Shown: piece by piece, positions 14,811-23,832 of the stretch
How positions within the stretch are numbered: the first letter of the stretch is position 1
Layout: each line of letters opens with the position of its first letter
DNA from: Poseidonia sp.
Lineage (GTDB): Archaea > Thermoplasmatota > Poseidoniia > Poseidoniales > Poseidoniaceae
Assembly (NCBI RefSeq): GCF_029250625.1
Contig: NZ_JAQXEX010000031.1
Strand: one strand, 5' to 3'
DNA: 57,552 nucleotides
Notes under the pieces: model-generated
What the model was told of the DNA's origin: nothing
Seen by the model: only the letters and a program-made list of their open reading frames with translations
Database searches by the model: none
Translations under genes and position numbers: made by a program

Positions 14811-16370
14811 TCATTCCTCAGGGATGTAGTACAATGCTACGCTTCCTGTACCCAGTGAAATCGGTTGCCCGACGATGATGTTTTCTGCAACACCGGTAAG
14901 GTAATCCTTCTCTCCGATGATACCAGCCTTCAACAGGTGGTTAACAGTGACTTCGAAAGCAGCACGAGCAAGGATGCTGTGCTTCGTACCCGATACACCG
15001 TGACGCCCGATTGCACGGACTTCACCTTCAGAGGTCATCACGTCAGCGACCATCAACAAGTGACGGACGTCAACTTCCAGACGAGCACCGTCCAGCGTAA
15101 GTTGAAGTTCATCGACAATGGCTTGACGAGCAGCTTCAATACCAAGGTATTCGTAGATTTCGATGATGTTATTGGTATAGGTTCGGGAACGGTCAATGTT
15201 TTCCAGTTCGCTCACTCGGGTAAGATTGCTTCCAATCGTGGAGAGGTAGTACTCGCCAGTCTTGTCATCCAGTTGGACGTTCGCTCGCTCAATGCCAGGA
15301 ATTCCCTTTAGTCGCATGTCTCGGATTTTCTCCTCAAGTTGCAACAGCATGGTGTACGATGGTGGGTTCTCTCCAAGGTCTGCGAGGTCGTCTTCGCTGT
15401 GAACACCAGGAATCAAGGTCAATGTTGAGGGATTCTTTGCCTTATCCGTTTGAACAAAGAGTCGTGTAGCACGCTCAAGTTTGTCCTTCACTTCAAGAGG
15501 GGTCATTCCCTTTTGCTTGAGGTTACCTTTGTTGAGTTTGAGAACCAGACGTCGTTGAGCGACGTCTGTTTCCAACGATGCAATGTTCACGGTAGTGGTG
15601 ACTTCAATGGCTGCAGCAAGTTTCTTTGCTGCACCTTCGTTTTGCTGTTGTTCAGCAGTCATTCGAATGGTCATTGTGGGTGTTTGAGGTACCTTTCGGG
15701 CGTCCACAATCTCAATGATACGTGGAAGACCTTGGGTTACGTTAACCGTTGCAACACCAGCATAGTGGAACGTACGCATGGTCATCTGAGTTCCAGGTTC
15801 TCCGATTGATTGTGCGGTAATGATACCGGCTGCTTCGTAAGGATCGATACTCGCTCGGTCCAATGCAACGATGGATTCATCGATAACTTTCTTTGCCTGA
15901 GCCTTGGTCAACTTCTTCTTTCCACGGCTGTGGCATGCGACGGTTAGGTCGTTAAAGATACGGTTCGTGAAGCGGCTTGATCCTGATGCTTCGGCTGCAG
16001 CCATGAGTGACTTGAACACAGGGTCGTCAGCCAACTCGTCTTCAATGGACTTCATTTTACGATCAATGTCGTAGGGTTCAATGGCCACTACGGTCTTGGT
16101 TCGAGCACGGCGTGTTGTCTTTCGCAGACGGACACTTGTGACCGGGCCAGTCGCCTCGCTGCTTGCATCACGACCCTTTTGGGTAGCGGCTACAATGGTG
16201 GCATGAATGGTGCCTGCAGTGTCTGAGTCTGTTTCGCAAAACTTAGCGACGTCGTTTTGGGTCATGACTTTGACATCGTCCCACTTTCGGTCATCAGCAA
16301 GCATGTGTGCGAAGTTTTCTGCAATACCCAAATCCATGAGCTTCTTCTTGGTTGCGCTCTTTACTACCAT
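14811..16370 (-). CDS. rpoA2: DNA-directed RNA polymerase subunit A'' (Rpo1C) with N-terminal extension
   Basis: [17 protein letters not shown] trigger loop, [30 protein letters not shown]. Confidence 0.97.
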
Positions 16371-19300
16371 CAGTTCTCACCTCCATCGTTTTCGTCAGCG
16401 TCATCTTCCCATGCGCCGAGATCTTCTTCAACAATATCTCGCTCGTAGGAGTCACGGTCAATTTCCAATCCACCGGATGTTCCGAGAGCAGCATCAACGA
16501 TGACGTCGATGTTGAACGGAGATCCGTGTACACCACGGGACGGGTCAATTCCGTCTTCTCCGTAGCTGAATTGGATGATACGATTTGCAGTGTTTCGAAC
16601 AGAGAGCATTTCGTCATCGTAGACCTTCAAATCGTCCATTGCGTTGATGAGTCGGCGTTGCATGTATCCGGACTTTGCAGTACGGACAGCGGTATCAACC
16701 AGAGACTCACGGCCGGAAACAGAGAGCATAAAGAACTCCGTAGGCTTTAGTCCACGCTTGAATGAGGATGCAATGAAACCACGATCTGGTGCTCCACGTC
16801 CTCCACGCTTGAAGTGAGGTAGGACACGGTCATCGTATCCACGTTCCAAGCGCTTTCCACGAACCTTTGCTTGTCCGATTGATGCGGCCATCATGGTCAA
16901 GTTGTCCATTGAACCACGAGCACCGGAAATAGCCATGTTAACGGCAGCGTTGGTGGAACCGGACTTGTTCAACTCGTCCCTTGCGTATTCACCAGCTTCT
17001 TCCTTACCCTTGTCGAGCATTTGCATGATGTTTTCTTCCATGGTTTCTCGGGGTGTACGTCCTGGTCGGGCTTCGTAATTCTTACCGTTAGCACCGAACT
17101 TCTCCAGTTCTGCGTTGACTTCATCGCTGGCCTTTGCGTTTGCAGCATCAATTGCAGCAACAGCTTCGTCAGAGAGGTCTTCGTCATCGATACCGGTCGT
17201 AAATCCTAGGGACGTACAAGCGGCGATGGACATTTGTGTGAACTCGTCAAGGAAACGAGCACCAAGTTCAGGGCCGTTGGTTTGAACGATAGCGTCCAGA
17301 AGACGACCGTCTTCAGCCCCAATGGCTCGCTTGTCAAGGGTTCCTTCAACATCACCGTCTTTGACGACAACCCAGTCGTTAGAACGACTGCGGAAGCGAA
17401 GATGGATGTTTTCGGGGATGATCAGCGAAATCAAGTCTTGTCCACGGAAGCAGTCTGCACCGTTTTCGTCCTTGACAATTTCAGGAAGCGCTCCAGTGTA
17501 TCCGATGTTTCCAAGCATTTCCAATCCGTTGGATTGCCTGATCAGCGTTCCAGGTCGGGAAAGGAGGTAGGCTCCGGAGATGTGGTCGTGGATGCCACCA
17601 ATCACAGCACCGCCGTAGCGAGGTGTGAGGATGTGCTCTTGGACACGCATCAAAATCTTAGCTTCTGCACGGGCTTCTTCAGATTGAATCACGTGGAGGT
17701 TCATTTCGTCACCGTCAAAGTCAGCGTTGTACGGGGTACAAACTGCAAGGTTGAATCGGAAGGTATGACCCTTCATGACACGAACTTCGTGAACCATCAT
17801 TGACATGCGGTGGAGCGAAGGTTGTCGGTTGAAGATCGCAACATCGCCATCGATAAGGTGGCGTTCAACTTGGAGACCAGGCTTTGGGTTCCCGTAGCGG
17901 TCAACCGTTGCGAGACGGTCTTCAACTTGGGTACGCTCGCCGTAGAACTCATCAACAGGGCTGAGGCAATGCGGGCAGGTGACTTCCAGATGCTCAGGGA
18001 AGGGTTCTGGGTCTGCCTTGTCAGCTTGGGCAAGTTCGTGCATCCAACGGTAGTGGAGGATCGCACGTTTGTCATCTTCGGGAAGTGGTTTTCCACTTTC
18101 GTCAATGCCTTGCAAGTTCAATAGTGTTGCAGCATCGTTGACGGCGTAGGTGACTTCTTCGATACTTTGGTCCATTCCGGCAAGTGAGATTTGCTTCTGA
18201 ATAACCATTCCTGGGAGGAAGTTCGGAGCAGGCATGACTTGGTGCAGGTCAGGTGCCCCCGTGGTGTCTTCATTGCATTCCGGGTTGTGGCAGCGGAATC
18301 CAGCGTTAAGAAGTCGACTTCGTGCGTTAATCTTGACACGTCGGTTGTCGCCGCGGATGATGTAGTTCACACCAGGGTGAACATCAGGTCCGCGAAGAAT
18401 CATCTGGCGCATTTGTTCTCGGTTACGAGCAGTGGCTCGGATCGGCACAGTAAGTTCCTTTGCAATCTTTGTTGGAACACCGACTTCATTCACGCTGAGG
18501 TACGGGTCCGGCGAAATAACCGATCGTGCACAGAAGTTGACACGCTTACCGGAAAGGTTGCTTCGGAAACGTCCTTCCTTACCCTTGAGCCGTTGAGTCA
18601 AGGTCTTGAGTGTACGACCTGAGCGGTGGCGGGCAGGTGGGATTCCCGAGGTTTGATTGTCAAAGTAGGTGGTGATGTGGTACTGAAGTAGTTCCCACAA
18701 GTCTTCAACAATCAATTGTGGTGCACCGGAGTCACGGTTTTCACGCAGACGTTGGTTGATACGAAGAACGTCAACCAGTTTGTGGGTGAGGTCGTCTTCG
18801 GAGCGGTCTCCACTGTCCAATGTAATGGATGGTCGGACGGTGATTGGAGGTACGGGGAGCACCTTGAGAACAATCCACTCTGGGCGGTTCTGCTTGTCCA
18901 TTCCGATAAAGATGAGATGGTCAGCAGGGATGCTGCTCAACCATTCACGAACGTCACGAGCGTTGAGCTTTCGCTCCGTGCTTTCGTTCTTCTCCTTGAA
19001 GGTGGTTGGCTTGTCAAGAATAATCTTTCCTTGGGCAGCTCCACAGTGCATGCACACTTTGCGCTTAGTACCCGAGGTGACCTTCTCAACTTCCTTGATC
19101 ATCTTCGAGAATTCAGTCGAACCAACACCGTGCTTCGTCATGACGTCACGAATGCGGTTTCGGTAGTAATCTTGCTCGGAGTGGTCCGGGTTGGAGGGGC
19201 TCGTACCTTCTTCGGTGTGAAGTAGGATTTTGCTGCAGGTGTTGCAGGTTGCTTTGAGCGCAGTCTTGATGAGGTTAACGAAACCGATGTGAATCACAGG

Positions 19301-19555
19301 CAGTTCAAGTTGAATGTGTCCAAAGTGGCCAGGGGATTCGTCGTACTTGCAACCGTCGGTTGGGCAGATCAGTCCAGGTTCGATAACACCCATGTGAGGG
19401 TCCATCAGACCTTGCTTGTATGCGTGTCCGTCGTCCTTGTAAGTGTCAGCAGTCTTCACCTCAACGGCAGACATCTTCTTGATTTCAATAGGGTCCATCA
19501 GTCCAAATCGGATTTGTGCAATCCGCTTGGGAATCATTGTCGTTTTTCGGCTCAT
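16370..19555 (-). CDS. rpoA1: DNA-directed RNA polymerase subunit A' (Rpo1N) with a ~145-aa insertion
   Basis: Catalytic [35 protein letters not shown], bridge helix [16 protein letters not shown]. Confidence 0.97.
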
Positions 19556-23169: not shown

Positions 23170-23181
23170 GTTATCCTCTCC

Positions 23182-23832
23182 TCAGTTCCCCTCCACAATC
23201 AGCCGGTAGGCAATTGTGCGTCCTGCCGATGGGGATTGGCGGACGACTTTCAACACTCGGTCAGCAATCCATCCAGCAGCCAGTGGCTTGTGGTCGGGGT
23301 TAGCCGCAAGCCGGGCCATGTCTTCTGCTTCTGCGAGTTCTTTGATGACCTGGACAACCGGGTCGGTGATCAGGACCTTGGGTAGCAATTCCTTGGCGAG
23401 ACGATCTTCACCGGTCTCGGCATCTGGTTGCACCATGTTCCACGGGGCGAGTTCGGACAATTCAATGGCGAGTTGGTCTTCGTCAGAGATATTTGGCTCT
23501 CCAATGAGTTCTTGGTGAGGTACGAGAATGTGATTGAGTGCGTTGAAGCGAGAAGTAATCTCAGGTCGGTCAAAGTCGTCAATAGCCTTTGAGCGGATGG
23601 TGATCTTCTTGCTCTTCTTGGCAGCACGTCGGCGGGAGCCTTGTTCTGCGATGATGTTCATTGTGGTGACGAATTCTTCTGCGTCTTTGGAAATACCGAG
23701 GACAGAGGCGACTTCGTCGTGGCCCAAGTTCTTGATGTCGGTCATGTTTCGGTCTGTGGCGAGTTTGTGAGCGTAATCCTCAGAAACTCCCAGTTCCATT
23801 AAGCGTTTTTTAGTTGCACTTTTTACTACCAT
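23182..23832 (-). CDS. rpoH: DNA-directed RNA polymerase subunit H (Rpo5) with a ~95-aa N-terminal extension and internal insertions
   Basis: HILVPHQEL, LPKVLITDPVV, KVVRQSPSAGRTIAYRLIV; first protein gene of the rpo operon; GGGGTG RBS before ATG 23832. Confidence 0.9.
   Translation of the reverse strand: MVVKSATKKRLMELGVSEDYAHKLATDRNMTDIKNLGHDEVASVLGISKDAEEFVTTMNIIAEQGSRRRAAKKSKKITIRSKAIDDFDRPEITSRFNALNHILVPHQELIGEPNISDEDQLAIELSELAPWNMVQPDAETGEDRLAKELLPKVLITDPVVQVIKELAEAEDMARLAANPDHKPLAAGWIADRVLKVVRQSPSAGRTIAYRLIVEGN

Follow-up and report, generated by a model that had tools for sequence, protein, structure and literature searches.

The window analysed here, a stretch of 57,552 nucleotides from Poseidonia sp. 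(contig NZ_JAQXEX010000031.1 of assembly GCF_029250625.1), encodes four RNA polymerase subunits in the head-to-tail minus-strand gene run rpoH-rpoB-rpoA'-rpoA'', of which the first and the last product open with the same small helical domain. The run starts with rpoH (23182-23832; 216 amino acids (aa), ATG at 23832) and continues with an unsplit rpoB (19552..23169; 1205 aa), rpoA' (16370..19555; 1061 aa), which lies between the two domain-bearing genes and whose stop overlaps the start of rpoA'', and rpoA'' itself (14811-16370; 519 aa, ATG at 16370). The 5' region of rpoH is delimited by a tRNA-Lys(TTT) gene on the same strand (23880..23955), which ends 47 nucleotides before the ATG. The shared domain, referred to below as the head, has about 62 residues and is found at these two sites only in the genome to which the window belongs (1.93 Mb, 105 contigs).

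Both proteins are built in three parts. In rpoH, codons 1-64 (23641..23832, minus strand) encode the N-terminal five-helix domain with a basic tail at residues 1-10 and an acidic body, codons 65-93 (23554..23640) a basic and poorly conserved linker that is recognised by alignment, charge and low predicted local distance difference test (pLDDT) values, and codons 94-216 with the stop (23182..23553) the Rpo5/RpoH core with lineage-specific insertions, assigned by PF01191, alignment and model. In rpoA'' (minus strand), the paralogous five-helix domain occupies codons 1-62 (16185..16370; BLASTP, alignment), an Arg/Lys-rich linker codons 63-110 (16041..16184; charge, alignment), and a set of pre-core helices together with the Rpo1C core codons 111-519 and the stop (14811..16040; PF04998, TIGR02389). 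A Shine-Dalgarno-like motif, GGAGGTG, is located at 16378..16384 on the same strand, 7 nucleotides before the rpoA'' ATG and within the end of rpoA'.

The core of RpoH begins at about residue 94 and is thus preceded by 93 residues. It scores 29.8 bits against PF01191 (cut-off 23.5) over residues 145-212, covering model positions 29-73 only, and 36.9 bits against NF007129, under the cut-off of 83; no other Pfam family is matched by whole RpoH at E<=1. The available portion of PMC3906176 describes archaeal subunit H as a protein of about 75-90 aa without an N-terminal extension, and the 216-aa RpoH departs from this small form. Within the core (23185-23553, minus strand), the proteins of the family that includes the window (f1) have two extra segments of about 9 and about 10 residues when compared with family f3 (alignment columns 114-122 and 176-185). 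The core of RpoA'' begins at about residue 112-151 and is matched by PF04998 (1.6e-50, residues 112-465) and, over residues 151-514, by the equivalog model TIGR02389 (422.2 bits; cut-off 420.65).

The two N-termini are alike to a degree that, judged from sequence, lies far beyond chance. The preliminary description of this DNA had reported N-terminal peptides of RpoH and RpoA'' sharing 22 of their first 34 residues and had placed them at 23650-23832 and 16191-16370; both peptides are encoded exactly by the DNA, and the ranges correspond to the 5' ends of the two minus-strand genes. The identity extends to 24 of the first 46 residues, and a single BLASTP comparison of the whole proteins aligns residues 1-78 of each with 29/78 identities (E 2e-13). 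Fifteen of the 24 identical residues within the first 46 are specified by different codons, so that the likeness has been kept at the protein level and does not stem from a recent exchange of DNA.

The head is a real, translated and selected part of both subunits. All 20 rpoA'' starts inspected (19 relatives and the window) have GGAGGTG or a close variant of it in front of them, and the start position of rpoH is conserved among relatives with ATG, TTG or GTG as the codon. The translation starts assigned to the two genes are thereby supported. In four metatranscriptome runs, which belong to two studies, contigs extend unbroken from rpoB through the domain-coding region and end at 23853-23907, with none covering the DNA past 23909 towards the tRNA gene body; RNA libraries can include DNA, and these contigs therefore show the presence of the arrangement and not its transcription. 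All 11 variants that they display in codons 1-64 of rpoH, at 10 places, are synonymous, and their amino-acid changes in rpoH fall in codons 94 and 104. A crude ratio of nonsynonymous to synonymous variation (pN/pS) obtained against 24 rpoH genes of the same genus is lower in the RpoH domain (0.17) and the linker (0.19) than in the core (0.28). Between families, the identity of domain, linker and core is 0.50, 0.35 and 0.57 in RpoH and 0.65, 0.28 and 0.71 in RpoA'', which makes the head nearly as conserved as the cores and the linkers unconserved, and the RpoA'' domain has 21 invariant columns in 20 genomes.

The distribution of the head follows the order Poseidoniales. All genomes compared are metagenome bins, and their families and genera are referred to by f- and g-numbers. 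A single-sequence search recovered the domain from 41 of 41 genomes of relatives (24/24 of f1, 2/2 of f2, 14/14 of f3); at the level of the class it was present in 50/50 genomes of f1 and 25/25 of f3, which belong to the order, and in 0/43 of f4 and 0/2 of f5. A profile search of 301 genomes of the phylum gave 42/42 for f1 and 21/21 for f3, with only two weak matches in the other 237. These two matches (E ~1e-3), both in family f17, fall in the gene for the archaeal primase small subunit and were taken as chance or a generic hairpin likeness; on contig L052 the stretch matched by the head profile comprises 36 residues of this gene (1276-2469, minus strand). Among 401 Poseidoniales genomes the profile finds a match in 382, and both copies are present in 67 of the 67 genomes that are at least 90% complete. 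Two domain matches are the rule in nearly all Poseidoniales genomes; in five there is a third, which lies on a separate contig, either in a frame as long as RpoH or RpoA'' or in a truncated one. Outside the order RpoH is short, with frames of 81-121 aa in five genomes of three families.

An AlphaFold model derived from an alignment of 40 sequences that holds both kinds of domain copy (A1) predicts five helices (residues 6-14, 18-25, 30-34, 38-45 and 52-63; pLDDT 87.6). The modelled architecture is that of a helix-hairpin-helix (HhH), a linker helix and a second helix-hairpin-helix. When compared with the Protein Data Bank (PDB) by Foldseek, as the preliminary description had proposed, the model ranks highest, if with weak statistics, with (HhH)2 domains, namely those of FANCM/FAAP24, XPF, ERCC1, the RAD51/RadA N-terminal domain, UvrC and Hef, and SAM domains come after them. 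XPF superimposes with a template modelling score (TM) of 0.73 and a root-mean-square deviation (rmsd) of 2.6 Å, and the best structural matches have rmsd values of 2.1-2.7 Å across about 60 residues. VIA-align, run against 48,161 chains and with the tool's own warning that small helical models often reach Z values of this size, places SAM domains first (Z 7.0, rmsd 2.2 Å, 59-60 residues), followed by the HhH repeats of topoisomerase V (Z 6.8), FANCM (Z 6.7), and the NusA repeat region with its acidic repeats and XPF (both Z 6.5). In the first hairpin a near-invariant Gly15 is followed by Ile or Val; the second hairpin is degenerate and not conserved. A five-helix fold of the SAM-like/(HhH)2 class is thus well supported as a prediction, whereas membership of a family at the sequence level is not.

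The head is predicted to be tethered. In the model of whole RpoH the head (pLDDT ~87) and the core (~90) are separated by residues 72-101 with values mostly below 50, and the predicted template modelling score is 0.49, which points to two bodies joined by a floppy link. The linkers of 30-50 residues are basic and modelled as disordered. Averaged over 20 genomes for each subunit, the net charge of the tail (residues 1-10) is +4.0 in both RpoH and RpoA'', that of the domain body -5.2 and -5.7, and that of the linker +3.2 and +6.8, with a range of +3 to +11 for the RpoA'' linker; the body is acidic in 40 of 40 copies (-7 to -3). The Arg/Lys-rich linkers that had been described after both domains are hence borne out by these means.

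How the two copies arose can be read from the RpoA'' proteins of the wider phylum. The suggestion that an N-terminal extension of RpoA'' exists beyond this lineage holds for the phylum at large, since RpoA'' frames in 151 of its genomes measure 357-1383 aa and most exceed 460 aa. Among the N-termini of 25 genomes outside the order, 13, from ten families (f4, f5, f6, f7, f26, f30, f40, f43, f48 and f49), begin with about 60 helical residues followed by a Lys/Arg/Ser-rich stretch. The alignment of these 13 N-termini (A2) matches A1 in hhalign over 44 columns, with a probability of 93.7% and E 1.9e-7. A tree of 53 heads, built from 64 alignment columns and with its finer branching left unresolved, unites the 40 Poseidoniales domains in one clade (support 100/100). 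A branch with support 60/99, present in 58% of bootstrap trees, has the H copies on one side; these cluster according to family, and none joins the A'' copy from its own genome. Together, the profile comparison and the tree indicate that the A'' appendage was copied once onto RpoH and that the copies have evolved apart since. The A'' copy is on this evidence the local form of an old, phylum-wide A'' appendage. The H copy is specific to the order and goes back to a single duplication of the A'' domain, which took place before the families split and no later than the base of the order. Recent gene conversion between the H and A'' copies, which had been posed as the alternative to duplication, is ruled out by the tree topology and the codon differences. 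Outside the order the tail has a charge of only +1 to +2 and the body one of -5 to +8; a strongly basic tail joined to an acidic body is a peculiarity of Poseidoniales.

The RpoA'' N-termini of the phylum vary in other ways as well. In sister families (contigs L054, L056, L057 and L058 of f4 and f5, L100 of f12 and L111 of f20) the protein has 720-860 aa and carries an N-terminal helical head, a conserved domain of about 200 residues and a second hairpin-like pair. On L094, L096, L099 and L107 (f36, f31, f38) RpoA'' opens with an apparently beta-rich domain of about 100 residues and not with a helical head. On L097 (f40), L103 (f19), L104 (f11) and L105 (f29) two to three classical helix-hairpin-helix pairs with the pattern Gly-Ile/Val-Gly follow Lys-rich stretches at the N-terminus, which means that hairpin modules recur on RpoA'' in the phylum.

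The head is not confined to RNA polymerase. A profile search of 1.84 billion representative sequences returned 208 proteins at E<=1e-3. The best 150 of these comprise 22 A'' and 13 H subunits, 25 proteins too short to class and 90 others, some short ones of which may be polymerase fragments. At least 47 proteins among the best 150 of 208 are non-polymerase proteins with at least 100 aa after the head, and sorting them by tail gives 24 families, of which 11 have several members and 13 are singletons. P0075, a repeat protein of 2474 aa in which 18 stretches gave a short, word-like match, was dropped as a false positive before the tails were counted. In the 47 proteins, here called orphans, positions 1-36 of the head are kept (mean share of the top residue 0.70) and positions 37-64 are not (0.19); the head is A''-like in 32, H-like in five and neither in 10. 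Most orphan tails match nothing in Pfam or PHROGs. P0084 combines zinc fingers and the head with an AAA_15/AAA_21 ATPase. The proteins come from marine metagenome contigs, mostly of 1-30 kb and one of them labelled 'Euryarchaeota archaeon', and a single cluster unites 21 members from JGI, ENA and Logan assemblies. The preliminary description had considered the domain as a module of the polymerase; its presence on these unrelated proteins shows that it is not specific to polymerase. The reading of the head as a tethered module agrees with the low-pLDDT linker of the RpoH model.

No non-polymerase copy of the head was found by the profile search in the 401 binned Poseidoniales genomes, nor was the orphan protein P0098 found in 251 genomes of the order by a search run without a positive control. 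A closer view of one orphan is provided by contig L064, which carries P0056 and matches 151 Poseidoniales genomes at two places only. The first match covers about 270 nucleotides that encode head and linker, with 11 nucleotides upstream, and is 81-82% identical at the nucleotide level to rpoH of one genus. The second is a 126-nucleotide end piece after the P0056 gene (11285-11410), which is 94-97% identical to pieces of two G122 contigs and 74% identical to a G421 piece; it contains no tRNA, has no Rfam match and could be a repeat or an attachment site. The remaining 10 kb are foreign to the 151 genomes. The 12 open reading frames (ORFs) upstream of the P0056 gene match only ThiF (4.5e-31) and, weakly and below the cut-off, Rho_N (3e-4) in Pfam, and the ORFs of the contig match nothing in PHROGs better than E ~1e-3. 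As the likeness to the host is confined to the copied 5' end of rpoH and the end piece, accessory genes seem to have taken the 5' end of a host polymerase gene.

The function that is somewhat favoured for the head is that of a tethered docking and nucleic-acid-holding module at the jaw of the polymerase, an address tag for a specific partner. As set out in the available part of PMC2675907, archaeal Rpo5 does not have the first ~130 residues (the jaw) of Rpb5, which bind downstream DNA in the eukaryotic subunit, and the absence of the jaw leaves a positively charged groove beside the clamp head that is the docking site of Rpo13 in Sulfolobus. Subunit H is close to the downstream DNA in initiation complexes according to the accessible text of PMC2847245. 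Given an Rpo5 that has no jaw and whose N-terminus would point to the downstream-DNA side of the enzyme, both heads are expected to hover at the lower jaw, where the DNA enters, the A'' head presumably beside the H head. The basic leashes and the invariant basic N-terminal tail may hold nucleic acid non-specifically, while the conserved face of the acidic body, made up of the tail and helices 1 and 2, or 1-3, would dock a partner. Candidates for this partner are a basic groove on the polymerase, a transcription factor and a further copy of the domain. The charge distribution bears on the earlier proposal of a DNA- or factor-binding module, in that a body of about -5 next to a tail of +4 is more in keeping with an (HhH)2 domain that docks proteins, as the NusA acidic repeats do, than with a simple binder of DNA; it is no argument for non-specific DNA binding through the hairpins and no decisive one against it. 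That at least 24 unrelated orphan families have kept no more than the first ~36 residues argues for a specific partner or address tag rather than plain DNA binding, and accessory or viral elements may have copied the conserved face in order to reach the same partner. A further step is put forward tentatively: the first ~36 residues (tail, helix 1, hairpin, helix 2 and helix 3) might be an address tag, presented twice by the polymerase, for a component of the transcription machinery of these abundant marine archaea, and viruses or plasmids of the same hosts might have copied this tag repeatedly from rpoA'' and rpoH onto at least 24 unrelated proteins, thereby joining or competing with host transcription by molecular mimicry of a polymerase appendage.

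Several observations weigh against this account, as does the limit on the RNA-library contigs given above. The domain was not matched in 19 of the 401 Poseidoniales genomes, all of them 67-87% complete and among them six of the 11 genomes of genus g6. The Foldseek matches to FANCM and XPF have probabilities of 0.96-0.97 and TM 0.70-0.73, but at E values of about 0.8-1 the matches are non-significant despite probabilities up to 0.97, and the weak fold matches leave (HhH)2 and SAM domains unseparated in the modelled structure. Neither 80-residue N-terminal piece matches any Pfam family at E<=10, HhH, alpha-CTD, Rpb5 jaw and Rpo13 included, and no PDB chain matches the domain by sequence; a profile search of the PDB found only a designed repeat protein (E 0.026) with no single stretch significant, and a search of the ESM Atlas with the domain gave no usable match. 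The head thus appears by sequence to be a member of no named family, and the resemblance to HhH domains noted in the preliminary description is upheld by the five-helix model and the (HhH)2 matches from both structural searches and not by the E values, the equal standing of SAM domains or the Pfam results. With respect to a viral origin of the orphans, IMG/VR searches with P0079, P0098 and the domain alignment yielded nothing confirmed (203 pattern matches of the alignment, 0 confirmed by tblastn), the A'' head had no tblastn match among 50,697 GenBank phage records, a BFVD fold search with the domain found nothing at E<=0.001, and on L064 neither Pfam nor PHROGs reveals a viral hallmark gene. 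What supports the mobile-element reading is the absence of orphans from the bins together with the single contig L064.

The best of the competing explanations, although somewhat unlikely, is a plain clamp for downstream DNA in which the (HhH)2 heads and their basic leashes grip the duplex non-specifically at the entry channel and replace the Rpb5 jaw in the manner of Rpo13, the orphan proteins having merely borrowed a DNA-binding module. The best fold matches do include DNA-binding (HhH)2 domains (XPF, FANCM/FAAP24, UvrC, topoisomerase V and LigA), and the near invariance of Gly15, the basic tail and linkers and the classical tandem G-I/V-G hairpin repeats on RpoA'' of other families of the phylum would all suit such a role, as would the position of Rpo13 and the Rpb5 jaw, which adjoin Rpo5 and contact downstream DNA in the available sections of PMC2675907. 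The body is, however, acidic in every one of the 40 copies, the second hairpin is unconserved, and positions 1-36 as kept by the orphans amount to one hairpin, a slender basis for binding DNA. Across unrelated proteins the tail and helices 1 and 2 are extremely conserved, which suggests a specific partner.

It is improbable, in turn, that the heads are chiefly a pairing handle by which the H and A'' copies bind each other or themselves, forming a strap across the jaw or linking polymerases, with orphans docking by the same pairing; the idea could be combined with the docking and address-tag reading. The analogy comes from fold matches that are obligate hetero- or homodimers (XPF/ERCC1, FANCM/FAAP24, Hef, SAM-SAM pairs), and it would explain why genomes hold exactly two paralogous copies that have been kept apart throughout the history of the order and why the orphans can be sorted into those with an A''-like head (32) and those with an H-like one (5), apart from 10 with neither. 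A common fold does not show a common binding mode, however, and outside the order one head occurs on RpoA'' and none on RpoH, so that H-A'' pairing cannot be the ancestral role. An artefact, in which translation really starts downstream or the orphans are chimeric contigs joined at a conserved stretch, is very improbable: all genomes are metagenome bins and most orphans sit on contigs of 1-30 kb, but the start positions and the Shine-Dalgarno-like motif are conserved, the domain varies only synonymously at a pN/pS of 0.17, its fold is modelled confidently, and orphan families, one of them the 21-member cluster, have several diverged members whose heads diverge along with their tails.

Other features of the locus concern the remaining genes. 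In rpoA', residues ~380-560 (17876-18418, minus strand) form a stretch of about 180 residues with two Cys-x2-Cys pairs that splits the match to Rpb1 domain 2, itself matches nothing in Pfam at E<=0.01, and is probably a lineage-specific insertion of the largest subunit. The last 45 residues of RpoA' (16373-16507, minus strand), just before the rpoA'' start, are strongly acidic in the window and have a mean net charge of -5.9 in 21 genomes (range -15 to 0); this acidic tail could pair with the basic linkers. Downstream of rpoA'' an L30e gene (14465-14764, PF01248) adjoins an ORF of 1141 aa (10983-14408, minus strand) with a signal-like start, many Asp-rich repeats of a calcium-binding-like kind and a C-terminal membrane anchor. 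On the plus strand, an ORF of 493 aa (24128-25609) joins an N-terminal S-adenosylmethionine-dependent methyltransferase domain to a biotin/lipoate protein ligase domain.

No description of an N-terminal head on RpoH or RpoA'' was found in the literature; a 2026 survey of archaeal polymerase subunits treats Rpo6 and Rpo8 and makes no mention of it in its available text (PMC13257274), and neither does the accessible portion of a paper on viruses of this archaeal group (PMC5434244). The feature is a lineage-specific tethered appendage of the polymerase, and its reuse as a portable head is the striking part. One of the most abundant groups of archaea in the ocean bears the same tethered module on two subunits, and the same head occurs on dozens of orphan proteins outside the core genomes. 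The feature also dates a clear duplication of a domain from one polymerase subunit to another. If the head is indeed a docking tag, as the preferred reading has it, it would open a way into the control of transcription and the conflict between virus and host in organisms that resist cultivation.

Among known systems the nearest in descent is the RpoA'' appendage of the phylum, which shares profile homology, position and a following Lys/Arg/Ser-rich linker with the Poseidoniales heads; it differs in being present on RpoA'' only, where it is often accompanied by further modules, and in going undetected by the Poseidoniales profile at E<=0.01. The (HhH)2 domains of XPF-ERCC1, FANCM-FAAP24, the RAD51/RadA N-terminus, the NusA acidic repeats and topoisomerase V are the nearest in fold and resemble the modelled head in their five helices, their ~60 residues, the two helix-hairpin-helix units around a linker helix (TM 0.70-0.73) and the Gly of the first hairpin followed by Ile or Val. 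In contrast to them, the head has no sequence match, a degenerate second hairpin, an acidic body and a place at the N-termini of RNA polymerase subunits. In logic the closest systems are the alpha C-terminal domain of bacterial RNA polymerase and Rpo13 or the Rpb5 jaw. The alpha C-terminal domain, which each enzyme carries twice at the end of flexible linkers, binds to DNA of the UP element, to activators and to the second acidic repeat of NusA (NusA-AR2). The preliminary description had drawn an analogy with this pair, which holds in so far as there are two small helical modules per polymerase on flexible tethers and goes no further, as no homology is shown: there is no Pfam match, other subunits and other termini are involved, two paralogous genes take the place of two copies of one subunit, and the head is also found on non-polymerase proteins. 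The jaw of Rpb5 and Rpo13 of Sulfolobales and Desulfurococcales are likewise lineage-specific additions by Rpo5/Rpb5 on the downstream-DNA side. The jaw is a domain of about 130 residues with a different fold, with no known duplicate on Rpo1C and no Pfam match to the head. Rpo13 is described as small and helical, its ends flexible and basic (PMC2675907). It forms a subunit of its own that contains a helix-turn-helix, has no known duplicate on Rpo1C either and shows no sequence relation to the head in Pfam. Together, the Rpb5 jaw and Sulfolobus Rpo13 illustrate that lineages add parts which touch DNA or factors at this corner of the enzyme.

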